Source of the DNA: an uncultured virus (IMG/VR IMGVR_UViG_3300046837_000353)
Taxonomy: Duplodnaviria > Heunggongvirae > Uroviricota > Caudoviricetes
Strand: one strand, 5' to 3'
IMG/VR virus record: IMGVR_UViG_3300046837_000353
Location: 1-64,000 of that record
DNA: 64,000 nucleotides
Shown piece after piece: positions 6,087 through 39,775 of this stretch. Position numbers and translations under genes: made by a program. Position 1 is the stretch's first letter. Every line of letters starts with the position of its first letter. The notes beneath the pieces were generated by a model, which saw only the letters and a program-made list of their open reading frames with translations, searched no databases and was not told where the DNA came from.

Positions 6087-6418
6087 CTATCATGCAAAAT
6101 GATTTGAATTCTTTTATTGAGCGTTGTCAAAGGCTTACGATGGGTTTATGGACGAATTTCGGGCGACTGTACGGCACCGGAAGTGGGGGTTTCGGACCCT
6201 TCGAGTACATAGCAGTGGGATACGAATACCGCGCTCCACGAGCCTTGAGGCCGGCCTTTGTGAAACGACCCTTGAATGGACTTACGCGGCCGAAAACGTA
6301 ACGAATCACTAGGACGGTGAGGCCGATCACGTTCAGACCGACCCACACCGCCAGAACTATTCCAGCGGTTAGCACCCCTAACCCCCCACCCTTGAATTGA
6401 ACCCAAAAAGTAGCAGCG

Positions 6419-6520
6419 TATTGCAATGCGGTGCAATAGCTAATTTCGCAGGTCAGGTATGCAAGTTTGCATATTGCAATGCGGTGCAATATCGCTTACA
6501 TTTCCTGAGTCAGATGGAGA
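6419..6520 (+). promoter_or_regulatory. Duplicated TTGC-N8-GCAA site plus cassette leader
   Basis: TATTGCAATGCGGTGCAATA at 6419 and 6472, then GTCAGATGGAGA before ATG 6527. Confidence 0.75.
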
Positions 6521-10135: not shown

Positions 10136-11404
10136 TTATGTTACTCTTAAGTTATACTTAAGAAATCTTTTGACCAAAGTTGTTGACTTTATTCTACGTC
10201 GAGTTAATGCAGAAAGCATCATCATAGTTACTCCAACTATCACTATTGAAACTTTGTCGTTCATATCTCCCACAATGAAAATTGGTTGTAGAATTAATGT
10301 CATCAAAACTCCAGTACAAAATGTAACAAGAGAATTCTGACCTAAAAGAATGACTGGCTTGGAAACAGTCCATCTTAAGAATTCACTCTCTCGACTGACA
10401 AAGCTATTAATAACAATCACCACTGCTAGAAAATTAGCTAGTCGGACTGGTGCTAGAAATTCTTTACTTTGAAATAGTCTCCATGGCAAACCACCAGGAA
10501 AGATGAGTTCATTTACCGATGGTATGCTAAAAATTGCGCATCCTATAACAATAGTCCAAGCTCCAATAGTTATCCAATTCCATTTATTAACTATATAAAT
10601 TTCTCTGTTCTTAATCGGAATAAACTCTGGAATTAGAATTCTTCTTCTATGAGTTTGAAGATGTCGAATTGATGCACCTATGACAAATAGGAATTGCCAT
10701 GACAAAGGATTTACCCAATGAGCACTGTTAAAATATGGAATATCCCACAATATAATTAAAGTCGAAAAGTAAATTGAAAAGGAAACTAGTAACGTTACCA
10801 ACACATTCTTCCTAAGAGCATATAGAATAATCGGAAGAATTGCTAGGAGCATCATATATACTGGCAAAACTCCTAGAAATGGTACCTTAAACTTAAAAGA
10901 AACTAGCGCATCGATAGCTTGCTGAAAGACAGTATCAATTGAGATATAAGGAGATGACTCACCAGAAATTACTACATACAAAAAGTAGAATAAGAAAATC
11001 AGAAAGTTGGCTATGTATAGCTTACCAACTCGTTTGTAAATTTTAGTAGCTGTTGGTCGTATTCCATAGTTATTCAACATACTTCCATAGACCAAATAAG
11101 AAATGTATCCTGAGATACAAATGAAAACCTCCGATGCATCGAAGAAAGTGAAATAGCGAAGGAGTAGCGGTGATCCATGAACATGATCATAAAAGATCAA
11201 AATGAGAGCGATTCCTCGAAAGAAATCTACTCTGGGATCACGAGAGCTAAGGTAGTCAGCCGGCATCATTACACCGGTGGTACCGCGCCGATTCTCTTCA
11301 ATCGGCAAAGTGTCGATATGACTTCCCTTCTGAAAATCAGCGCGTGGTTTTGGGAGACGGGACAATCTATGCTCCCAACGATACATCATTTCGGCGTAAT
11401 CCAT
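10136..11404 (-). CDS. opgC: OpgC-family membrane acyl(succinyl)transferase
   Basis: RDPRVDFFRGIALILIFYDH, DASEVFICISG, LPVY, NPLSWQFLF, LGQNSL..FC; about 10 TM segments; start placed at the AAAGGA RBS. Confidence 0.85.
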   Translation of the reverse strand: MDYAEMMYRWEHRLSRLPKPRADFQKGSHIDTLPIEENRRGTTGVMMPADYLSSRDPRVDFFRGIALILIFYDHVHGSPLLLRYFTFFDASEVFICISGYISYLVYGSMLNNYGIRPTATKIYKRVGKLYIANFLIFLFYFLYVVISGESSPYISIDTVFQQAIDALVSFKFKVPFLGVLPVYMMLLAILPIILYALRKNVLVTLLVSFSIYFSTLIILWDIPYFNSAHWVNPLSWQFLFVIGASIRHLQTHRRRILIPEFIPIKNREIYIVNKWNWITIGAWTIVIGCAIFSIPSVNELIFPGGLPWRLFQSKEFLAPVRLANFLAVVIVINSFVSRESEFLRWTVSKPVILLGQNSLVTFCTGVLMTLILQPIFIVGDMNDKVSIVIVGVTMMMLSALTRRRIKSTTLVKRFLKYNLRVT

Positions 11405-11415
11405 AACAGTTCCTT

Positions 11416-12672
11416 TCATCTCATAAACCAACGACTAATCACTTGCTTCACTCCTTTCATTGGGGAACCCCACCTTTGCCTTACTTCTTTGGCTTGTTTT
11501 TGTACTGTTATCTTTAATGGTGGATTGTGTCTTTTATGTAGTTCTTCAATTACAGCAGTGATGTCTCCTAACTTTCCATCAAAACCTACCTCAAGAACAG
11601 CTAGTGACGCAATCGAATAGGCTTCAAGCAGACGTGGTACCCATTGTGTTCTCCGCTTTAGATCCATTGGAAGGATCTTTTTCCCCACATTATTTTCAAG
11701 ATTCACCCAGTTTATTGCCCGGATTTTCAGCGTTTCCATAGTTAGAAGAGCATCATTCGGATAACCAAGTATTTTAATTTCATGTATCTTATTCCAAAAC
11801 ATCTGTTTATATTCATTAATCAAGCCCATTTCAAAGGTATAGCGCATGGCTCGGTGAAGTTTTTGATTACCTCGCTGTCCATGTTCCAAGTGGGTTAGTA
11901 TGTGAAACCATGCGTCCTCAAACGGATCTCTACTGGGCTTCAGTCTAGGACGACGATACTTGGTGATGGATGAAGGTGTAACTTCCACCACTTCCTTAAC
12001 TTTGGGTAACGGTGCGGGTGGAGGCAACACAGGAGGAGTTAATAACTTAGGTGGTGCTTCCGGGTATACCTTGGGTGCACGTTTGCGCCTGGCCGCACCC
12101 GCGCGAGGTAGAGTAGATTTCTCAGGTGGAGCCTGAATTATCTCTGGTGGGATTGGTGGTACCTGCGCAGCATATGTCGCCGCTTCTGCTTCCCGACATC
12201 CGTTAATAAGTGCTGCAACCTTATCCAAATTAACCCCATTACCATTGGATTGCGGATTAGTTACAGAGACTTCGTTATTACAGGTAGGACATGTATAAGC
12301 AGGTTTTTGATTGGAAGATGGCCAATGGGATAGATAACGTTTATTCCCACAATCTACACAAGCAGTCGTATCAGGCTTAAGCCGAATAAAATCAGAACGT
12401 TGCAGACGGGGAATATTTCCCCGACTGTTTTTTCCCTGATCATCTTGACGCTCAATGAGTGGGCGGACATATGATATAAATAACCGCCATCGGGCAGTAT
12501 GCAAACCTACATCAATCGGTGAATCTCCTCTGCCATTAATCCGGGAGGATCGGCGGAGGGCTAGATGGGGTGGAATTGATTCTTCCACCCCAGCAAAGAG
12601 CCCTCCTAACCGAACCCAAGACTCTGGGTTCGCCGCTAGATTAGCGACGGTTTGTTGTCGCCAGGTTAGCAT
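11416..12672 (-). CDS. Hypothetical protein with Zn ribbon and Pro-rich linker
   Basis: CVDC...CPTC; PPVLPPPAPLP. Confidence 0.7.
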   Translation of the reverse strand: MLTWRQQTVANLAANPESWVRLGGLFAGVEESIPPHLALRRSSRINGRGDSPIDVGLHTARWRLFISYVRPLIERQDDQGKNSRGNIPRLQRSDFIRLKPDTTACVDCGNKRYLSHWPSSNQKPAYTCPTCNNEVSVTNPQSNGNGVNLDKVAALINGCREAEAATYAAQVPPIPPEIIQAPPEKSTLPRAGAARRKRAPKVYPEAPPKLLTPPVLPPPAPLPKVKEVVEVTPSSITKYRRPRLKPSRDPFEDAWFHILTHLEHGQRGNQKLHRAMRYTFEMGLINEYKQMFWNKIHEIKILGYPNDALLTMETLKIRAINWVNLENNVGKKILPMDLKRRTQWVPRLLEAYSIASLAVLEVGFDGKLGDITAVIEELHKRHNPPLKITVQKQAKEVRQRWGSPMKGVKQVISRWFMR

Positions 12673-13685
12673 ATCGGCGAGGCAGCCTGTGCTAACCCTG
12701 AGGATGCGGAACCACCCTGCATCCGAATGATCCTCTCGAGTTCGGCTTGCACCTTGTTGAGATGATCCTTCAAATCCAGAATCGCATTAAGGGAATCACG
12801 GGGATTTACCAATGCGGATAGATGCAGATGCTCAACTCCCTTGCTGGCCTGCCTGCTCAATCCACGGCAACCACCAATAAACTTTGTTCCCATAGTGGAG
12901 GAGGTCTTACCAACCCGGGACTTGATGCGACGCTGCTCTTCCTCGGCCTGATCGTGATACTTCTTAACCACGGCCATCTCAGCATCCTGTCCCTTGGTCT
13001 TTACGGCATTGACATCACGAACCATATTCTCAACCGTTCTGCCCGTGACGGAGTAGTAATGGGGCAGTTCGGCCGCCTTCTGATAGACGATATCTGAGCC
13101 GATTTTATTGAGAGCAATGATTGTGTTCTGGGGTTGATTGCCATTATCGAAGTCGAACCCCAGCTTCGATGCACGCTTAATCCCCTGATACTCATTCCAA
13201 GCACTCAATGCTGTGGCGGCGGGAATGTGGAACATCTTCGCCAGCTCAGGAATGGTAGTATTGGGAAACTTTTCGTGCATCGAGAAGATATGATGCGTGA
13301 CATCTTGCCTGGTATCACGCTTGCCTTCGATACCGTTAAGCAAGCGCAGCAACAGCTCCTGACGATACTGATCAGGCTCAGTCACGATATAAGCATCATG
13401 CCAGTCGAGTTTGCAGTCCTTGGTCGCCTTAATCCGGTGCATTCCTGTACCGACAAGGTATTTGGCTTGATCGACTGCAAAGACAACAATCGCCGGAAAT
13501 GGAGCGCCCTCAAGCATGGCTAGGCCATACTCGTTGACGAGCAAATCATCAATTTTTCGCCTTAGACGAGCTGGATTTTCCTCACTCGCCTTGAGATCAA
13601 TATCGCTGAATAGCAGTTTCTCCACATAGCGAAACTTGTAGTTACCCTGCTTAAATAGGGCTTCAGTTCCTGCGTGTTTTGTCAT
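12666..13685 (-). CDS. ParB/Srx-like N-terminal domain protein
   Basis: V.EY..AM.EGA.FPAIVV....YLVGTGMHRIKA followed by an HTH-like segment. Confidence 0.65.
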   Translation of the reverse strand: MTKHAGTEALFKQGNYKFRYVEKLLFSDIDLKASEENPARLRRKIDDLLVNEYGLAMLEGAPFPAIVVFAVDQAKYLVGTGMHRIKATKDCKLDWHDAYIVTEPDQYRQELLLRLLNGIEGKRDTRQDVTHHIFSMHEKFPNTTIPELAKMFHIPAATALSAWNEYQGIKRASKLGFDFDNGNQPQNTIIALNKIGSDIVYQKAAELPHYYSVTGRTVENMVRDVNAVKTKGQDAEMAVVKKYHDQAEEEQRRIKSRVGKTSSTMGTKFIGGCRGLSRQASKGVEHLHLSALVNPRDSLNAILDLKDHLNKVQAELERIIRMQGGSASSGLAQAASPIC

Positions 13686-13775
13686 AATCCTTTCCTTTCA
13701 ATGTACGTCAGCAGTTAGTATATATATGCTCGCGCAACACATTGCAAGCTATTTTTGCGACGGCTTGCAATTCAT

Positions 13776-14660
13776 TCATTCTTCCTCTATTAGTCCAGCT
13801 TCTCGTAATGCAGTTATATACGATTCGAGGTATGGAATCATTAGTTTCAACCGATTGACTAATTCGGTTGCAGATCGACCAAAATCAATCTGTTCACCAT
13901 TATCCGCCTCCCGACGTATATTATGTAAAAGTGCTTCTTGTATGGCAGTTACAAGTTTTCCAGGACTGTAATGTCGCGAATTCATAAAGTTTGAGATACT
14001 CAGTAGTCGGTCATCAATTAGTACCTTATCTCGAAGTAAGTTTGTAATTCTGGTGGGGTGTAGATGGACTCTACCATATTGTTGGGTAAAGGCTAGATGG
14101 TCCTGAATTGGTGCGTCTATTGGTGGACGTTCAACTTCACCCGGTTGTGTCCATGGTGTTAGGGTCATTGGTGGTATAACAATAGGTGTTCGCCTAACTG
14201 GTGCTTGGCGAACAGGTGTTTGTCTGGTTAATGGTGGGGTGGTAGATCTTTGGGGTCGATTTTGTCTTAATTCCTTTATTTTGGCTGTTTGTTGAGTTTT
14301 GGTCATTCCTATGAAACGGTGTTGTTCAGGAATAGGTAGATCTCGAGCGATGAACACAATTGAACCAATTGCAAATTCTTTTCGATCCATAAGCTCTATT
14401 ATTTCTGGAATACCTTTCTCAACGACAGTCACTGCTTCATATGCTGTGCTTCTATTACTAAGACCAACTCGTTTTGCTGCATCATCTGGACTTAGAAAAG
14501 CAACTCCAGTATACTGCAGTTGCTCTTGACGGTGGTCCCCACCATGCGGTCTCACAATCTTCTTGAACCAACCGGCTCGTTCACTGATCTTGTAACCGTC
14601 TCGCATTTCGTTCTCGTCTATTTCAGGTATTATGATTTCATCGATGTTTATACTTGTCAT
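13776..14660 (-). CDS. Hypothetical protein with a ParB-type HTH-like segment
   Basis: HGGDHR...DDAAKRVGLSNRSTAYEAVTVVEKGIPEIIE. Confidence 0.6.
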   Translation of the reverse strand: MTSINIDEIIIPEIDENEMRDGYKISERAGWFKKIVRPHGGDHRQEQLQYTGVAFLSPDDAAKRVGLSNRSTAYEAVTVVEKGIPEIIELMDRKEFAIGSIVFIARDLPIPEQHRFIGMTKTQQTAKIKELRQNRPQRSTTPPLTRQTPVRQAPVRRTPIVIPPMTLTPWTQPGEVERPPIDAPIQDHLAFTQQYGRVHLHPTRITNLLRDKVLIDDRLLSISNFMNSRHYSPGKLVTAIQEALLHNIRREADNGEQIDFGRSATELVNRLKLMIPYLESYITALREAGLIEEE

Positions 14661-14723
14661 TGTTCTATCTCATAAAAGAGGAAGGCGGACGGCTGTTGCC
14701 GCCCGCCCCCTTTGATCAGTTTC

Positions 14724-15713
14724 TTATTGTGCTGCTTCGGCCAGTTCTGCAGGTTCGATAAAGCGCGGGAAACGCTCATCGGTGCGCAGAAAGAGACCAT
14801 TGCGACCAATTCCCTTATCCTGTTTAAACAGATTGAATGCCTTGATCAGCAGAGCGAGACGTGGACCATACTTAAGATCCATGTCGTTCTCCTGAGTAGA
14901 CAACAACTTGTTACGCAGGTGCAGGATGGGATCATGTTCGTCAAGATTTGCTCCGGAACCCAGAGGACGGAAGAAATCCTCAAGCACATCGTTCCCGTAA
15001 AGCGTCAAGATCTTCGAAGCACTAAAGATCGCCGCCGGTTTGTTACCGATGACTTTGACTGCCGTAGGGTAGTTGGCCGAAACGTGATGTGCAGCGGCTC
15101 CCACCTCAGGATGCTGGCGACTATAATTCAGCACTTCAATATTAGTGAAGGGCCGAATGACAGGTTGCTTGTTGGTAACGACCAGTGCATTATGGTCGTA
15201 TCGCCAAGCCAGCTTAATCGCACCCGCGACCGAAGCCGCCATGCCGTTTGCACCAGCTGTGTACAAGGCATCTGCCGCGTTCCTCGGCTTAGAATCGTCA
15301 ATGAACGCAAACAGAGAGTCATGCACTGGTATATCACACACCACGTAAGTTTCGAATGTGACACCTGACATGTAGCAAGCCCATAGCCGATGCTGTGCAT
15401 CCCACACTTGGCCATCAGTTGTGATCAAAATTGCCTGACCAGTCTTGATCCACATGTCCGCAATCATGCAAGCGGCATACTTACGGATAGCTGAAAGTGA
15501 AAGCTTCCGATTTACCTTGTTACGCCGAAGGAGCTTCTCGGCGATTTCTGGTGTGATTGTGCACCAACCAGTGGTAACAGGAAGTTCGGTGGGAGGAAGT
15601 TGTGTAGCTGACCATTCATCGAACCTAGTGACCAACTCCTGAAAAGCTAGTGCACTACAAGTATCAAGGTCGATGGTGACAGCTGGACTCCAAGTGGTAT
15701 TAGGTTCTGGCAT
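14724..15713 (-). CDS. ParB-like / DGQHR-type domain protein
   Basis: ITPEIAEKLL..N..NRKLS...KYA..M...W...GQAI....DAQHRLWA. Confidence 0.7.
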   Translation of the reverse strand: MPEPNTTWSPAVTIDLDTCSALAFQELVTRFDEWSATQLPPTELPVTTGWCTITPEIAEKLLRRNKVNRKLSLSAIRKYAACMIADMWIKTGQAILITTDGQVWDAQHRLWACYMSGVTFETYVVCDIPVHDSLFAFIDDSKPRNAADALYTAGANGMAASVAGAIKLAWRYDHNALVVTNKQPVIRPFTNIEVLNYSRQHPEVGAAAHHVSANYPTAVKVIGNKPAAIFSASKILTLYGNDVLEDFFRPLGSGANLDEHDPILHLRNKLLSTQENDMDLKYGPRLALLIKAFNLFKQDKGIGRNGLFLRTDERFPRFIEPAELAEAAQ

Positions 15714-15872
15714 TTTTACCCTTTCTTCTGTGCGGACGACAAATTGTCTGTTGCACGCGCTTAATGTAGCGGAGTTCAAATTCGATTGCAAGATAAAAAT
15801 TTTGCGTGTACTGCAATTGCAGATTATTGCATAACAGCTATGCAAAAACGCTTCAATCAACGCATTTTCTGC

Positions 15873-15901
15873 TTGCAATGAATTGCAAAATATGCTAGGC
15901 T
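15873..15901 (+). promoter_or_regulatory. Sigma70-like promoter overlapping TTGC-N8-GCAA
   Basis: TTGCAA-17 nt-TAGGCT. Confidence 0.65.
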
Positions 15902-15906
15902 CATAA

Positions 15907-16010
15907 TGCAGCAGGTTGCTGCGACCGTGTGCACAACGGGGTTCAATAACAGGGCAATCGCTCTGCCAACTATCTGGGTAGGAATGGCGAACCAGCAGCG
16001 ACTTGTTGTA
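15907..16010 (+). ncRNA. Candidate structured non-coding RNA (about 104 nt)
   Basis: 16-bp terminal helix with four G-U pairs enclosing multibranch hairpins; starts at the expected TSS of the promoter above. Confidence 0.5.
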
Positions 16011-16033
16011 CTATCTTTGGAAAGGACAGCATC

Positions 16034-16204
16034 GTGGTATCAGCAAAAACATTACAAGAGATTGCAAAGGTCATCTTAAGGCATGTTACACCTGAAGTGG
16101 CTGATGCGATATGCCAAGACCTGATGAAGGTTCAGGGAAACAAGAGTTATACAGATACAGTTCATCATCTGGGAATTCTGCTTCAAAGGATCACCCTAAT
16201 CTAG
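16034..16204 (+). CDS. Small hypothetical protein (56 aa; not in ORF track)
   Basis: AAAGGA RBS, GTG start, MVSAKTLQEIAKVILRHVTPEVADAICQDLMKVQGNKSY... Confidence 0.55.
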   Translation: MVSAKTLQEIAKVILRHVTPEVADAICQDLMKVQGNKSYTDTVHHLGILLQRITLI

Positions 16205-16209
16205 CCTTG

Positions 16210-16370
16210 AATTGAGTCTTGATTTCAGGCCTTTCTAAGTCAAGACTCAATTAGCCTTTTCACTAATTCATAAAGTGATAAATAACTAAATTAACCTTTA
16301 GGTTAATGATGCGCGCGACCGTGCGTGCGCAGGCGTGCGTCATGCGCGCATATATACGCGTACGCGCGCA
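16210..16370. other. Candidate replication origin or protein-binding region
   Basis: 13-bp inverted repeat, AT-rich tract, ATTAACCT-TT-AGGTTAAT palindrome and an alternating purine-pyrimidine run near the strand switch. Confidence 0.35.
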
Positions 16371-16537
16371 AGACGATGTAAGAGTCAAGAAATTTTTGGT
16401 GCTGGCTCAAATCAGGTATTGCTTTTCGTCGCAAGATCAGTTATATATATCTTTGGAGGTGTAGTACCTCCCAGGCCGGTTTTGATGCGTTCCGGCAACC
16501 CATCAATAAACGCACGCGGGCCAGGAGGCCCTATTAA

Positions 16538-16990
16538 ATGCCTGATGGTAACTTCAAACCACCCGCTCCACCCCTTCCAGCGACTATTGCTGATTGGGAT
16601 GCAGCACGAGTCAATCGCAATTTGCCGAGGAGTCTCAATGATATTGTTGAAGAGATTCATCGTCGGCTAGTTGTCGATGATTCAGAGACTGGTCGTGATT
16701 ATCGTAAGTATCTGTTTGCTATTTGGCCAAGCGAAGCGATCGAAGGTGCGATCGTTTATGACGACGCCAAGGCAGCGATGATCATCCAGCAATTTGCGCA
16801 GGATGTTGGCATTGAAATTCCTGCGAGTAGCAACAAGATCGACCCGATCGTAAAGTCGCTGCACGTAACGCTAAGTCGTTATGAGCAGTCGAGAAAGCAA
16901 CGTCGGGATGTGGTCCAAGGCATTCCTGTTACTCGTCGTCGTGGTCGTCCGCGTCGTAATCAGACCGACGATAACAACAACAACGAGTAG
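16538..16990 (+). CDS. Hypothetical protein with a basic RRRGRPRR (AT-hook-like) tail
   Basis: GGAGG RBS; promoter with TTGC-N8-GCAA at 16419. Confidence 0.7.
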   Translation: MPDGNFKPPAPPLPATIADWDAARVNRNLPRSLNDIVEEIHRRLVVDDSETGRDYRKYLFAIWPSEAIEGAIVYDDAKAAMIIQQFAQDVGIEIPASSNKIDPIVKSLHVTLSRYEQSRKQRRDVVQGIPVTRRRGRPRRNQTDDNNNNE

Positions 16991-16999
16991 GTATCTTGG

Positions 17000-17028
17000 G
17001 TGAGGGGGATCAGCCCCCCTCACTTTTT
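17000..17028 (+). terminator. Intrinsic terminator
   Basis: GTGAGGGGG-loop-CCCCCTCAC-TTTTT. Confidence 0.8.
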
Positions 17029-17042
17029 ATAAGGATGTAACA

Positions 17043-18137
17043 ATGCCTGAGGATAATGTCTTTCCAATGCCAACACCGTTAGATCGACTAGCTGCCTTAA
17101 TCCCACGAGATCTTGAGCGGCAGAAACTTGGCCGTCAAGAATGGATTGAAGGGTCATTCAATCTTTGTATCCACCTCGCTGAAGCTAAGGCACTTCATCC
17201 AGCGACTGTTGAATTCAGTCAGTGGTGTACTGATAACGGTTTTGGTGAGACCGTTATTAGTTCTGATAAAAGAGCCGCCGCTATTAAAATGGGTCAGCAA
17301 CCTGAGGCTTTACGTGTAGCATTAGAAATAACAAAACGTAGTTCGTTAGAAACAATCTACGATAACGACTTTAGAAGCTCGACTTCGGAACGTTCCGAAG
17401 TCGATAGCCGCGCGGATAGCTCAAACGAACCAACACCAACACCAACACCAACACCAACACCAACACCAACACCAACACCAACACCAACACCAACACCAAC
17501 TAATACAACTACATCAAGACCAACACCAACACCAACTAATACAACTACATCAAGACCAAGAACGGAGAGACCAGTGCAAGAGCCACCTCGTGATAGGGTA
17601 GACGAGGTTCTTCGTCGACTGGATGCAGGAGAACCAGTCACTAGGGTTGTAATTGCTGAAGTGTTTAATTGTGGTGAAACCGCAGCATCAAATGCAATCC
17701 TTGTAGCGCAAGTGGAACGTCGGATTAGACAGGAACCCACTCCAGTTGCTGTTACTGAGATGCCGGAGAATATGCGACAACGTTACGAAGCCGCAGTTCG
17801 AAAGGCAAGGCGGGAGTTGAAAGTAGAAATCACTGCTGAAGTAAGAGCAGAAGTTCATGCTAATTACGATGTAATGATTTCGGGTGTGAGGAGACGACTT
17901 GAGCGGGCAGATCGACTTATTGCGCGTGATCGTGGTCTTATGCTTCGTCAGGATTATCGAAAACTTCTCGCTGCCTTGCATGTGGATCATAATACGTATG
18001 AACATGCGCGCGAGATGTTTGAACTAGTAAAACGGCTAGAAGATGTTCTGGTAAAACCAGATGATCCACCTAGCCTAACTTTACCAACCAGTGCTGCGGG
18101 TCTTGCCGAATGGGCTAGACAACATAGAAGCAACTAG
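17043..18137 (+). CDS. Hypothetical DNA-binding-like protein with a Pro-Thr repeat linker
   Basis: 364 aa, (PT)12 linker, HTH-like TRVVIAEVFNCGETAA. Confidence 0.7.
   Translation: MPEDNVFPMPTPLDRLAALIPRDLERQKLGRQEWIEGSFNLCIHLAEAKALHPATVEFSQWCTDNGFGETVISSDKRAAAIKMGQQPEALRVALEITKRSSLETIYDNDFRSSTSERSEVDSRADSSNEPTPTPTPTPTPTPTPTPTPTPTPTNTTTSRPTPTPTNTTTSRPRTERPVQEPPRDRVDEVLRRLDAGEPVTRVVIAEVFNCGETAASNAILVAQVERRIRQEPTPVAVTEMPENMRQRYEAAVRKARRELKVEITAEVRAEVHANYDVMISGVRRRLERADRLIARDRGLMLRQDYRKLLAALHVDHNTYEHAREMFELVKRLEDVLVKPDDPPSLTLPTSAAGLAEWARQHRSN
17430..17558 (+). repeat. (CCAACA)n tandem repeat plus a 36-bp duplication
   Basis: About 12 CCAACA units, then PTPTPTNTTTSR encoded twice. Confidence 0.95.
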
Positions 18138-22440: not shown

Positions 22441-22492
22441 CATGTGTTCGAATTCGCGTATAATAATTTGATGCCTATTTTTGGGGGAAGCA

Positions 22493-32062: not shown

Positions 32063-33298
32063 ATGCCAATACCGAGGTTATTCGGGGATAATGAACCTCC
32101 AGCTAAAGGTGGGCTGGGTAAACCTCTGTCATGTGTATCTTGTGGTCTGTATAATGGACCAATCAACCCAAAGATGCCTCCCTTCGGGGATTTCAAGAAA
32201 CAGATTATGGTTATTGGTGAAGGACCCGGTGAACAAGAGGATCGAAAAGGTAGACCATTCCAGGGACCAACCGGTAATGCTATCAAAGAAGCATTGAGTG
32301 ATCTTGGTATTGATCTATTTCGTGATTGTATAAATTTGAATGCAGTTAATTGTCGACCACCTAGTAATAGAGCACCATCTGTCCACGAGATTGCGTGTTG
32401 TAGAGCGCGGATAGTGTCCCCCGCTATAGCTGCGCATAGTCCTCGATTAATGCTGCTACTGGGCGGGAGCGCCGTTACTAGTGTCCTTGGAAGTGTGCTA
32501 CCGGAAGCGCAGGACTCGAGCATTGGAAAGTGGCGTGGTTTTCACATCCCTCTACCGGAATTAGGTGCCTGGATTTGCCCAACGTATCATCCCAGTTATG
32601 TTTCCAGGTCCAGTGATAGGCCTGAAGTAGAGACAGTTTGGAAGAATGATTTGAAACAAGCTATTGACTTGCTAAATGTATCTGTACCCAGAGTAGAGAT
32701 TTTACGTAATAGGATTGTTCTTCTTCATGGTGAAGAAGAGATTCTTAGAGCATTGAATAGGGTAAAAGTACGAAAAGGTCTGTTCTCATTTGATTATGAG
32801 ACTGTAGGATTAAGTGCAAAGTTACACAGTATAGTTTGTGCGTCTTTTTGTCAGTCACCTGAGCGTGCGTATGCGTTTATGTTTACTGATGCTTCCGAGG
32901 CTGTTCGTCAAGCTTGGCGGGATATTCTAGTAAACGAAGATATTGGTAAGATCTCACATAATCTATCATTTGAATATGAGTGGAGCCGCTTCCATTTTGA
33001 TATTGATGAGATAAATTGGGCTTGGGATAGTATGCTTGCAGCACATGTTATTGATAATCGTACGGGTATTTGTGGGTTAAAGTTTCAATCTTTTATCAAT
33101 TTTGGTGTTGTAGGGTATGAGAATTTAATCGATCCCTATTTAAAGTCTGTAACACCGCGAGATCCCACTGCGCCAAACCGTATACTAGAGTTTATAGAGA
33201 GGCATGGTGAAGATGAATGCCTAATCTATTGCGGGATTGACTCCCTTCTCGCCTATAGGTTAACCATGAAGCAAATGAAAGAGATTGAAGATGGCTGA
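32063..33298 (+). CDS. Family-4 uracil-DNA glycosylase domain fused to a PolA 3'-5' exonuclease (N-terminal part of a split DNA polymerase)
   Basis: CVSC, GEGPG..E, NCRPP.NR, TYHPS; then FDYET, HNLSFE, DSMLAAH, YCGIDS. Confidence 0.9.
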   Translation: MPIPRLFGDNEPPAKGGLGKPLSCVSCGLYNGPINPKMPPFGDFKKQIMVIGEGPGEQEDRKGRPFQGPTGNAIKEALSDLGIDLFRDCINLNAVNCRPPSNRAPSVHEIACCRARIVSPAIAAHSPRLMLLLGGSAVTSVLGSVLPEAQDSSIGKWRGFHIPLPELGAWICPTYHPSYVSRSSDRPEVETVWKNDLKQAIDLLNVSVPRVEILRNRIVLLHGEEEILRALNRVKVRKGLFSFDYETVGLSAKLHSIVCASFCQSPERAYAFMFTDASEAVRQAWRDILVNEDIGKISHNLSFEYEWSRFHFDIDEINWAWDSMLAAHVIDNRTGICGLKFQSFINFGVVGYENLIDPYLKSVTPRDPTAPNRILEFIERHGEDECLIYCGIDSLLAYRLTMKQMKEIEDG

Positions 33299-33497
33299 TG
33301 TTCACTTTGATTTTGGTATTTGGAATCAAAAGGCAGGTTGGATAGGAAAGTGCCCTAAACATGGTCCTCAGCAGAGTGGTCTTTCTATTTCCCTCCCACC
33401 CCTAATTAGAAATTATTGTGGTGAATGTTTAATTGAATTGTTAGATCAGTTTTGTCATCCTCTGGAGTACGTCAATGAAAATGATGGAAGCCTATAA
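33291..33497 (+). CDS. Small Cys/His protein between the two polymerase halves
   Basis: CPKHG...YCGEC; overlaps both neighbours. Confidence 0.55.
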   Translation: MADVHFDFGIWNQKAGWIGKCPKHGPQQSGLSISLPPLIRNYCGECLIELLDQFCHPLEYVNENDGSL

Positions 33498-34854
33498 GCT
33501 GCTCCAACGAGGGGCTGAAGCTCTTACCCTTGTAGAGGAAGCGGGGATTTGTATTGATCTTGTTTATGTTAGGGAGAAACTGGCTTGGGTTGAGCAAAAG
33601 TTAAAGCAGTCAGAATTACGACTAAAGAGCAGTGAGTTAGGCATTGCTTGGCTTGGTCGCTATGGTGATGCAATGAAGATTCAAAGTGTCCCTCAATTGA
33701 GACACATCCTTTATCAGGATATGCGAGCTAAACCATTCAAGATGTCTGAGGGTGGTGAAGAGAGTACAAACGAGGAATCCCTTCGACAGACTAATGTTGA
33801 TGGTGTTGTCCATTTGTTGCGGATGCGGAGGCTGAAAAAGGCTAAAGATGTTTTGAAAGTGTTGATTAGATCTACAGTCAATGGCAAGATCCACCCATCT
33901 TTTCTGTTGCATACAGTATCAACGTATAGATCGTCTAGTGCTGATCCCAACCTGCAGAATATACCAGCCCGAGATAAAGAAATTATGGACATCTGTAGAA
34001 GGGCGTTTCTTCCCAGCCCTGGTCATATTTTGATGGAGATTGACTTTTCAGGTATTGAAGTCGGTATTGCAGCAACTTATCACAAAGATCCTGTAATGAT
34101 TAAGTACTTACAGGATGAGACAAGTGATATGCACGGGGATATGGCAGGTGAGATTTTCTTGCTGCCCAAATTGAATACCCCTCTCAAAGAGATGGAAGGT
34201 GGGTATACATTAAGGCAGTCAGCAAAGAACGGGTTTGTCTTCCCGCAATTCTACGGTGACTATTACGAGCCCTGCGCGCTTAATGTCGCTTGTTCCTGGT
34301 GCAAGCTACCAAAGGATGGAATGTGGAAGCCTAATCACGGTGTTGTATTTAATGGTAAACCCATAGGGGAACATTTGATATCTAAAGACATTGATTCGTT
34401 TAGTGTATTTGTTGATCACATGGAACGGGTACAAAACAACTTTTGGGGCAAGCGTTTCAAAGTATATAATGCTTGGAGAAAGACTTGGCATTCTAAGTAC
34501 CAAAAGACCGGTGAATTTGAAATGAAGACCGGGTTTAGGGTCTCCGGTGTTATGGAAAAGAATCAAGTAATCAATTTCCCTGTACAAGGGGCCGCATTCC
34601 ATTGTTTGTTATGGTCTTTGATTGAAATGGTAAAGCAGTTAAAGGGTTGGCAGAGTAAGGTGGTTGGTGAGATACACGACAGTATGCTGATAGATGCACA
34701 TCCAGACGAGATCTCTGATATTATTCTAATGGCGCAGCAAATCTGCACGGTCGATCTACCAAACCACTGGTCTTGGATAGATATACCTATGCGTATCGAA
34801 GTTGCTGCCTCAGAAATAGATGGTAACTGGGCTGAAATGAAAGGTGCAGCATGA
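33475..34854 (+). CDS. Family A DNA polymerase, polymerase domain
   Basis: TYRSSSADPNLQNIP, DFSGIE (motif A), RQSAK..F...YG (motif B), NFPVQG, IHDS (motif C). Confidence 0.93.
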   Translation: MKMMEAYKLLQRGAEALTLVEEAGICIDLVYVREKLAWVEQKLKQSELRLKSSELGIAWLGRYGDAMKIQSVPQLRHILYQDMRAKPFKMSEGGEESTNEESLRQTNVDGVVHLLRMRRLKKAKDVLKVLIRSTVNGKIHPSFLLHTVSTYRSSSADPNLQNIPARDKEIMDICRRAFLPSPGHILMEIDFSGIEVGIAATYHKDPVMIKYLQDETSDMHGDMAGEIFLLPKLNTPLKEMEGGYTLRQSAKNGFVFPQFYGDYYEPCALNVACSWCKLPKDGMWKPNHGVVFNGKPIGEHLISKDIDSFSVFVDHMERVQNNFWGKRFKVYNAWRKTWHSKYQKTGEFEMKTGFRVSGVMEKNQVINFPVQGAAFHCLLWSLIEMVKQLKGWQSKVVGEIHDSMLIDAHPDEISDIILMAQQICTVDLPNHWSWIDIPMRIEVAASEIDGNWAEMKGAA

Positions 34855-38824: not shown

Positions 38825-39256
38825 ATGGAGAAGCGTCGTCTAGATGATCTGTGGGCCTATGACAAGTTCAGTCGTGCAGTAAAGGAAGAGCACGGCCTTG
38901 ATCCTAGGAGCCACATTCGTTACCTTGAAGACCGTCGCGGTTGTTGCGTTGTTCTCGTCGTAAAGAAAAGCTCTTATAGCTGGGCTATCGACGAGGGCAA
39001 TTTCAATTGGCTAGTCAACCTGCAGCGTCGCAATCGTGTAGACCAGACTTATGTTGCTCTGGTTGAGGATTGGGATAATGGAGAGATCATCAACTATGAC
39101 ACTGCGTTGAATGTTGACAGTCGCCTTCGCAATGTCCCACCCAATAACGGTGATGACGGAGGCACTTATTGGTGGGTGGACGAGAATTTCACCCCCAGCG
39201 GTGGTACCGGTGGTGTGCTGAGTAGGGGTCGCACCCTCACGAAGTCGCCGTTCTAA
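38825..39256 (+). CDS. Hypothetical protein
   Basis: AAGGAGG RBS, 143 aa. Confidence 0.7.
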   Translation: MEKRRLDDLWAYDKFSRAVKEEHGLDPRSHIRYLEDRRGCCVVLVVKKSSYSWAIDEGNFNWLVNLQRRNRVDQTYVALVEDWDNGEIINYDTALNVDSRLRNVPPNNGDDGGTYWWVDENFTPSGGTGGVLSRGRTLTKSPF

Positions 39257-39775
39257 ATGAAGGCAGGTTCCGGTAAAGGTAAAGGGGCAGCTTTCGAGCG
39301 TGAAGTCTCTCGAAGGCTGTCCCTTTGGTTATCGGAGGGTAAGCGAGATGATCTCTTGTGGCGCAGTGCTATGAGTGGTGGTCTCGCTACCTTACAATAT
39401 AGAAAAGACAAGATAAATTTAACACAATCTGGAGATCTGAGTGCGGTAGGGGAAGGTGCGTACGAATTCTGTGAAAAGACCTTTGTTGAATGTAAGCACT
39501 ATCAGGATTTGCAGATAGGCCGTTCCATTGTAAATAAGACAGGTGGGTTGATTACCTTCTGGAAGATAGTGGTTAGGGAGGCTCGTAAGTATGATAAACG
39601 ACCTCTGTTGATTGCAAAGCAGAATAGGTATCCCACTATTGTAGTCACTGATACAAGGCATCCTCGTCTCTGGTTAAACCCTATTGTAACAGTGGACCAC
39701 TGGGAAGTGCCTGCCTTCGTATATAATTTTGACAGTGTTACAAGTGTACGTAGACCGCTTAGGAGAGGTAATTGA
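39257..39775 (+). CDS. Holliday junction resolvase (Hjc-like PD-(D/E)XK)
   Basis: GKGKGAAFEREV, GDL, VECK, PLLIAKQNR. Confidence 0.82.
   Translation: MKAGSGKGKGAAFEREVSRRLSLWLSEGKRDDLLWRSAMSGGLATLQYRKDKINLTQSGDLSAVGEGAYEFCEKTFVECKHYQDLQIGRSIVNKTGGLITFWKIVVREARKYDKRPLLIAKQNRYPTIVVTDTRHPRLWLNPIVTVDHWEVPAFVYNFDSVTSVRRPLRRGN

Follow-up and report, generated by a model that had tools for sequence, protein, structure and literature searches.

A structured RNA predicted at the head of an early transcript of a soil phage: leader or orphan small RNA

Stable small RNAs are typically organized with their two ends paired and nested three-way junctions inside. Y RNAs are one example (PMC4201824, in part), and the relevant portion of that report gives as criteria for the YrlA group a GNCGAAN0-1G motif near the 5' end, T and D stem-loops on either side of an acceptor-like stem, and a gene for Ro60/Rsr (TROVE) within about 4 kb on the same strand. 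RppH and RNase E require single-stranded 5' termini, and 5' structure is stabilizing (part of PMC3997798); larger obstacles to scanning by RNase E protect more, in a graded manner (part of PMC9943677). Metastable hairpins that block the Shine-Dalgarno (SD) sequence have a precedent in a section of PMC6733600. For valyl tRNA-like structures (TLS-Val), the pertinent part of PMC7749636 lists a 7-nt loop whose NAC anticodon precedes AC, a pseudoknotted acceptor directly before NCCA, a T arm capped by two G-C pairs, and a T stem and acceptor that together make 12 bp. Here, an element at 15907 to 16010 on the plus strand of a phage genome is compared with these systems.

The window, a 64-kb stretch of DNA, is the start of a 74-kb virus record (G000). 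A second virus record (G001; 93 kb, 98% complete) is identical to it across 4.5 kb around the element and adds genes for the head, contractile tail, and baseplate. The phage encodes 7-deazaguanine genes and a full replication set. The 7-deazaguanine DNA-modification set lies at 22481 to 45797 of the window and includes GTP cyclohydrolase, QueC-, QueD-, and QueE-like, and TGT-like genes; the DNA polymerase is represented by two neighboring open reading frames (ORFs; 32063 to 33298 and 33475 to 34854). Among the sequencing runs listed as carrying the phage, all 24 come from soil or rhizosphere and none is an RNA run. We infer an alphaproteobacterial host, because the plasmid matches of the OpgC gene are mostly alphaproteobacterial and most phage promoters lack a T at -7, as reported for Alphaproteobacteria (PMC8407463, in part).

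The element sits in a divergent gap, with an operon of ParB-like ORFs leading leftward and a 56-aa ORF leading rightward. A divergent minus-strand promoter (TTGCAA-17-TACATT, 15763 to 15791) serves the leftward operon, which was identified by PHROG matches. In distant relatives the primase gene lies close to a 259-aa gene; here an 8-kb island (10136 to 18137) that contains the element stands between them. The island is lineage specific and holds an OpgC-family acyltransferase gene (10136 to 11431, minus strand), two ParB-like ORFs, several orphans, and a phrog_5931 ORF, some of whose relatives in phages carry a ParB-like annotation. It also includes an ORF-poor tract (16262 to 16395) with palindromes, alternating CG/TA runs, and, near 16380, a third half-copy of the inverted repeat at 16210 to 16252; this tract looks like a replication origin or a protein-binding array. 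At 17371 to 17540, a six-base tandem repeat with a 26-nt palindrome inside encodes a Thr-Pro run in a 364-aa ORF. Elsewhere, very stable plus-strand-biased hairpins (z about -6) occur within or at the start of coding regions at 39220 to 39400 and at 68880 to 69000 of G000.

The plus strand of 15907 to 16010 folds at -45.8 kcal/mol (z -4.36), and none of 200 dinucleotide shuffles was equally stable. The minus strand gives a z of +0.40, and single-stranded DNA folding is not significant (z -1.19 and -0.73); the fold is specific to RNA and to the plus strand, the signature proposed in a sequence-only reading of this locus. The 16-bp helix with four G-U pairs described in that reading is present in full: P1 comprises 16 contiguous pairs (15907 to 15922 with 15995 to 16010), with no mismatch and with G-U at pairs 2, 5, 8, and 11, and its 15 pairs from 15908 have pair probabilities of 0.93 to 1.0. 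The P1 5' strand is also self-complementary, as a 6-bp hairpin (15908 to 15913 with 15917 to 15922) that is predicted to form first in transcription and is matched in stability by 0.25% of 20,000 composition shuffles. The P1 3' strand has an alternative pairing across the SD spacer and start codon that is 4.5 kcal/mol worse. Inside P1, P2 (15925 to 15939; probability 0.58 to 0.62) carries the palindrome GUGCAC in its loop and has a shifted register (0.34 to 0.38, about 38%) in which CAC is shown in an anticodon-like loop. P3 (15940 to 15944 with 15989 to 15993; 0.61) closes a second three-way junction with P4, the CAGGGC/GCTCTG stem (15951 to 15964; 0.92 to 0.98), and P5 (15965 to 15988; 0.49 to 0.59), and G15965 is contested between the CAGGGC stem and the GCCA stem. 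P1 and P4 are thus the firm parts (0.92 to 1.0). Of the inner stems first proposed, CAGGGC/GCTCTG is retained, whereas CCGT/ACGG, GGTTC/GAACC, and GCCA/TGGC, which belong to P2, P3, and P5, reach only 0.49 to 0.62. Without P1, the interior has a z of -1.6, and 19 of 300 shuffles are as stable.

The start of transcription had been placed at about 15907 to 15908 from the motif TTGCAA-17-TAGGCT. The motif is there, as a candidate sigma-70-type promoter on the plus strand (15873 to 15901) with a -35 TTGCAA, a 17-nt spacer, and a TG-extended -10 TAGGCT (15896 to 15901), and it is the sole plus-strand candidate in 15713 to 16000 with a TTG -35 plus a full T-A-T core. Its two halves fare differently under the matrix built from the promoter family of this phage: the upstream box at 15873 scores 21.1 bits (18 members, 17 of which score 19.4 to 26.6), whereas the -10 part scores -10.6 bits (members, 3.4 to 14.0), and a generic promoter scan did not list the candidate. 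The -35 is part of a palindromic TTGC-N8-GCAA box of the phage (15873 to 15888), which scores about equally in reverse and so may also be an operator-like site. The predicted start, G15908, is the seventh base after the -10, the place at which 11 of 18 family promoters have a G; weaker alternative starts lie at about 15851 and at about 15914, the latter of which would shorten P1.

The family pattern has 21 matches, compared with 4.6 ± 2.1 in shuffles. Its approximately 18 promoters are spread over both strands from 2160 to 62730 of the window (e.g., 2704, 3465, 6085, 51372, 54540, 57217, and 58049 on the minus strand and 62700 on the plus strand). The layout is TTGCAA, an internal GCAA that completes the inverted repeat TTGC-N8-GCAA, a -10 of the TATAT type in which the -7 T is mostly missing, and, after it, GTCAG and an SD sequence; 13 of the 18 have leaders of 18 to 22 nt. 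Boxes without a good -10 cluster near 6411 to 6489, 13732 to 13770, and 15817 to 15888 and may be operators. The leader of the plus-strand promoter that follows (16419) is long as well, at 84 nt, and opens with a 7-bp hairpin (region 16458 to 16540).

P1 begins at the predicted +1, G15908, as a 15-bp helix. Helices of -22 kcal/mol or better anchored at the 5' end occur in 4 of 29,534 five-base start windows of the record, and P1 is the strongest of them (-24.8 kcal/mol). Multiplied by the number of promoter sites, the rate of the other three gives a probability of about 0.002 (23 family-like sites) to 0.012 (120 loose sites) that some promoter start would carry such a helix. The leader is also the most structured among 23 promoter-like starts (z -4.24; the next is -2.59). 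The coincidence of P1 with the +1 is the main reason to believe in the RNA, and selection on the fold appears likely to us. The modelling as a whole suggests a real RNA fold, probably selected, at the head of an early phage transcript and outside the catalogued families.

Covariance models of Rfam 15, including those for riboswitches (preQ1 and SAM among them), ribozymes, tRNA, transfer-messenger RNA (tmRNA), SRP, and C4, gave no match at gathering score in the 64,000 bases, and ARAGORN found no genes, in agreement with the initial statement that the element resembles no tRNA, riboswitch, or ribozyme. At E values up to 10, the only overlaps are RF00233, the tymoviral valyl tRNA-like structure (17.1 bits, with 40 needed), and a snoRNA fragment of 10 nt. 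The view that the element belongs to no catalogued RNA family survives these sequence comparisons. The gathering of homologues suggested at the outset did return copies, in three other virus records and three run contigs that span the element, all of them 100% identical. It returned no non-identical homologue, and no covariation was obtainable. Four DNA runs have no differing letters, and three of the four span the element and may be its source. With 361 nt as the query, blastn found no match in phages at an E value of ≤1 (three short chance matches at E 4) and only two short matches at E 4 in plasmids. In viral contigs, an exact 16-mer occurs at 13 loci, namely, three identical copies and 10 unrelated sites. 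A first gapped pattern found at least 119 loci, of which 80 were scored, with a best E value of 7.4 among the matches listed; a second found 69 loci, of which 66 were scored after the three identical copies were left out, with a best E value of 0.016 in three loci. Those three were rejected, being an AT-rich hairpin that lacks P2 and contains the pattern because the search selected for it, and a 16/17 match of 15942 to 15958 in G001, inside coding sequence that follows a structural gene, was judged to be chance. A single-sequence covariance model (R1), which has low power, gave two matches in 83 sources, both to itself; in two sets of whole records, 1 of 23 and 2 of 44 matched, and every match was an identical copy. 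For DnaB, identity to the nearest non-identical relatives in viral contigs does not exceed 53% (best 80 of 522), and closer ones (65 to 75%) are found in the protein collection. Six short words had no occurrence in the part of the supplements of the viral csRNA catalogue (PMC10690425) that was searched, and the element may be present in that catalogue or elsewhere in print, the literature searches having been aimed at analogues. A literature search found no paper on phage RNase III leaders.

The 3' arm of P1 ends, as originally described, just before the ribosome-binding site of the 56-aa ORF (16034 to 16204, plus strand): an SD-like GGAAAGGA at 16019 to 16026 precedes its GTG. The protein belongs to an unnamed small-protein family with a conserved L-x4-G-N-x-S-F motif. 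A full HMMER scan found 18 relatives, 19 members with the protein itself, at an E value of ≤0.001, and a profile found 27; no PHROG or Pfam family matches, and sequence searches of the ESM Atlas and PDB returned nothing usable. The existence of relatives indicates that the ORF is a real gene, and since it faces away from the upstream operon, a promoter is required in the gap. The terminator scan found none between the RNA and the ORF. An AT-rich inverted repeat follows the ORF (16210 to 16252, plus strand; -20.8 kcal/mol); its U-run is atypical, and the terminator scan did not list it, but it is a possible end of the transcription unit. The simplest unit would consist of the promoter, a 126-nt leader, the ORF, and this hairpin, about 345 nt in all.

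Homologues of the 56-aa protein occur in varied genomic contexts, and the RNA does not accompany them. The low-power model R1 had no match in 80 metagenome loci of the ORF family, taken from 99, some of which have little upstream DNA, or in five viral loci, and nhmmer with the RNA found identical copies only. Upstream regions of 2 of 34 ORF homologues fold as unusually (z -3.1 and -3.9), without sequence likeness. As the ORF homologues lack the RNA, a conserved cis-regulator of the family is argued against, which narrows the initial proposal of an uncatalogued noncoding RNA or a leader of the small ORF; the rest of that proposal accords with the lack of an Rfam match and with a helix at the likeliest start. 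In two loci (L315, 2501 to 2656; L092, 3001 to 3129), the homologues lie between fdhD and a nifS-type cysteine desulfurase gene, a possible hint of sulfur or Fe-S metabolism for some family members. A leaderless 57-aa ORF (15906 to 16079) that starts 2 nt before the predicted +1 was put aside, having no Pfam match and no non-identical tblastn match in the loci.

Our best reading, which we hold tentatively, is that the element is a 126-nt self-closing 5' leader that would hide the 5' end from decay and keep the ribosome-binding site open. Host sigma-70 RNA polymerase would start at G15908, and the resulting early mRNA, which encodes the 56-aa protein, would probably be monocistronic. In the predicted fold the first 15 nt pair with 15995 to 16009, which leaves no unpaired 5' base on the transcript and closes off its first 102 nt as a domain. 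By the known decay pathways, RppH and RNase E would be denied a single-stranded 5' end, and a large obstacle would be set before the coding region; this combination of blocked entry and obstacle size is what recommends the protective leader. P1 would also tie up the strand that could otherwise cover the start codon, leaving usable the SD sequence that lies 9 nt downstream. In silico, opening the ribosome-binding site costs 1.6 kcal/mol with P1 formed and 7.6 kcal/mol without it (5' arm in its own hairpin), because the start codon is then covered by the 3' arm. The outcome would be a long-lived, translatable message, whose inner arms may either offer a surface for binding protein or act as filler. 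Several observations weigh against the leader: all copies are identical, so that covariation is unobtainable; the -10 is a poor fit to its family, and transcription could start at either of two other sites; protecting the end would take no more than a simple 5' hairpin, and 100 nt exceeds that need; ORF homologues lack the leader; and short leaders prevail in the promoter family. If it is a leader, it represents an economical natural arrangement: a single long-range helix conceals the 5' end and at the same time keeps the ribosome-binding site accessible, ahead of a gene from an uncharacterized small-protein family spread across soil metagenomes. This would be a useful but modest finding.

End-to-end pairing with nested three-way junctions would suit a stand-alone noncoding RNA, a closed domain of about 102 nt released by cleavage in the U-rich unpaired stretch that follows P1 and then trimmed to the helix. 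Such an RNA would work in trans, either scaffolding proteins or serving as a decoy, and might dimerize through the palindromic loop of P2 (self-duplex, -12.7 kcal/mol); the ORF would be a passenger. We regard this as possible but doubtful. It is in keeping with an RNA that does not travel with the ORF family and that lies in an island absent between the primase and 259-aa genes of distant relatives, yet the 3' end has no terminator, the interior is poorly determined, no partner gene was found (TROVE, PF05731, 0 of 1 in the 98%-complete G001; controls positive in 2 of 14 genomes), and no antisense target in the phage rises above shuffled controls (best, -28.9 versus -24.0 to -29.9). A discrete RNA released in this way would be an uncatalogued small phage RNA of the start of infection and a candidate host-takeover or counter-defense RNA. 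We think it unlikely that the fold arose by chance in a long, unselected 5' untranslated region rich in CAG/CUG-type triplets. A block-shuffled 118-kb composite yields 0 to 4 (mean, 1.6) long-range helices of -22 kcal/mol or better, so P1 is unusual only by its position; the fold ranks 39th of 7,394 windows of its own record, though it is the most strand asymmetric among 7 strong asymmetric windows; and the weak interior, the lack of a non-identical homologue in any search, and the post hoc choice of promoter all favor chance. Chance has more difficulty with the coincidence of the helix with the predicted +1 (about 0.002 to 0.012, as above), with the G-U identity of all four non-Watson-Crick pairs on the plus strand, with the outlying position of the leader among the 23 promoter starts, and with the survival of the fold against triplet shuffles, none of 900 of which matched it.

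A two-state translational switch or timer seems improbable. The 5' arm would first form its local hairpin, so that the 3' arm covers the SD spacer and GUG (off); translation would come on once P1 replaces this fold, either with time or through ligand or protein binding. In stepwise folding the 5' hairpin does persist in the most stable structure until the chain reaches about 15996, few shuffles yield so stable an arm hairpin, and the off state is worse by only the 4.5 kcal/mol given above. However, the hairpin that blocks the ribosome-binding site is equalled by 266 of 2,000 shuffles (13%) and stays below 0.4% at equilibrium from 15 to 55°C, for which reason an RNA thermometer was also rejected. 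No riboswitch family matches even at E values up to 10, and the 7-deazaguanine genes are 6 to 30 kb away; together with the chance-level blocking fold, this removes the ground for preQ0/preQ1 or SAM, which had been suggested as ligands to probe. Very improbable, in our view, is an early transcript that is a masked mimic of the valyl tRNA-like termini found in plant RNA viruses. P1 would keep it closed until processing freed it, and 15908 to 15994 would form a D-like hairpin, a CAC anticodon arm, and a 3+5-bp acceptor pseudoknot ending in ACCA. The best Rfam alignment of the element is to RF00233, from the 5' end (17.1 bits, E 0.07 to 0.11), and a 3/5 pseudoknot with ACCA and an upstream T-loop word, a pattern tuned post hoc, is found at this one site in 118 kb and at one site across 20 shuffles. 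Set against this, the RF00233 gathering score is 40, only the 5' half aligns while the 3' half of the model is skipped, and RF00233 run on the record gave no match. The drawable pseudoknot (15950 to 15952 with 15963 to 15965, plus 15958 to 15962 with 15986 to 15990, before ACCA at 15991 to 15994) competes with P3 and P4, and such an acceptor pattern is found at 49 of 4,705 NCCA sites. The CAC loop is confined to the minor register of P2 (about 38%), where it sits above a G-G mismatch, and the bases after CAC are AA, not AC. Since P3 makes the T-loop word and ACC complements of each other, they are not independent. Because no T stem can form around 15942 to 15948, the CAC register needs 15940 to 15943, which it shares with the T-loop word, and ACCA is internal and paired in P3, the element falls outside TLS-Val as delimited in that part of PMC7749636. 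A true mimic would serve as a decoy for host tRNA-targeting defenses or tRNA enzymes. The least probable explanation, hardly to be credited, lies at the DNA level: a palindromic operator would occupy +1 to +15, with a degenerate repeat of it at +88, and P1 would be a by-product. The 5' arm does read as a perfect 6-3-6 palindrome where transcription is predicted to begin, and 10 of 15 positions of the 3' arm agree with it, but the 3' arm is nearer to the reverse complement (11 of 15, spacer included), with every difference G-U compatible. Moreover, of nine sites within two mismatches in 118 kb, the eight others are all at two, and DNA folding is not significant.

Compared with the described systems, the element shares features with several. 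Like RF00233, it has two 5' hairpins, which align weakly, with CAC in the second loop, and a possible 3/5 pseudoknot with ACCA about 85 nt downstream; unlike RF00233, it scores far below gathering, lacks a T arm, would not lie at a 3' terminus in the predicted transcript, belongs to a DNA phage, and has tRNA-like features that are mutually exclusive. The aapA3 type I toxin mRNA (PMC6733600, in part) also has a structured leader before a small ORF and an early hairpin later displaced by a long-range helix. The ORF here differs from the short hydrophobic peptides of type I toxins, its alignment pointing to an amphipathic-looking soluble family; no antisense promoter was found, unlike in type I toxin systems, and the fold blocking the ribosome-binding site is not significant. 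With the YrlA Y RNAs, as portrayed in part of PMC4201824, it has in common a length of about 100 nt and a predicted long stem joining both ends (the predicted fold lies within the Y RNA size and shape of 80 to 130 nt with an end-joining stem), three or four inner stem-loops in an order recalling V-T-AS-D, and a GGUUCAA word. Unlike in YrlA, the 5' arm has no GNCGAAN0-1G (a partial GGCGAA is at 15986 to 15991, near the 3' end), and the T-loop-like word (15940 to 15948) is not closed by a T stem and pairs in P3; YrlA identity was rejected on these two grounds and for want of a Ro60 gene and an Rfam match. The 5' stem-loop leaders in the parts of PMC3997798 and PMC9943677 considered here have, like the element, a base-paired 5' terminus at the start, here a predicted one, then an open ribosome-binding site and a short ORF. 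The element departs from them in its 15- to 16-bp long-range helix around about 70 nt with two predicted three-way junctions, and it has no sequence family. Beside these systems, the element, as modelled, is a structured phage leader or an orphan small RNA.
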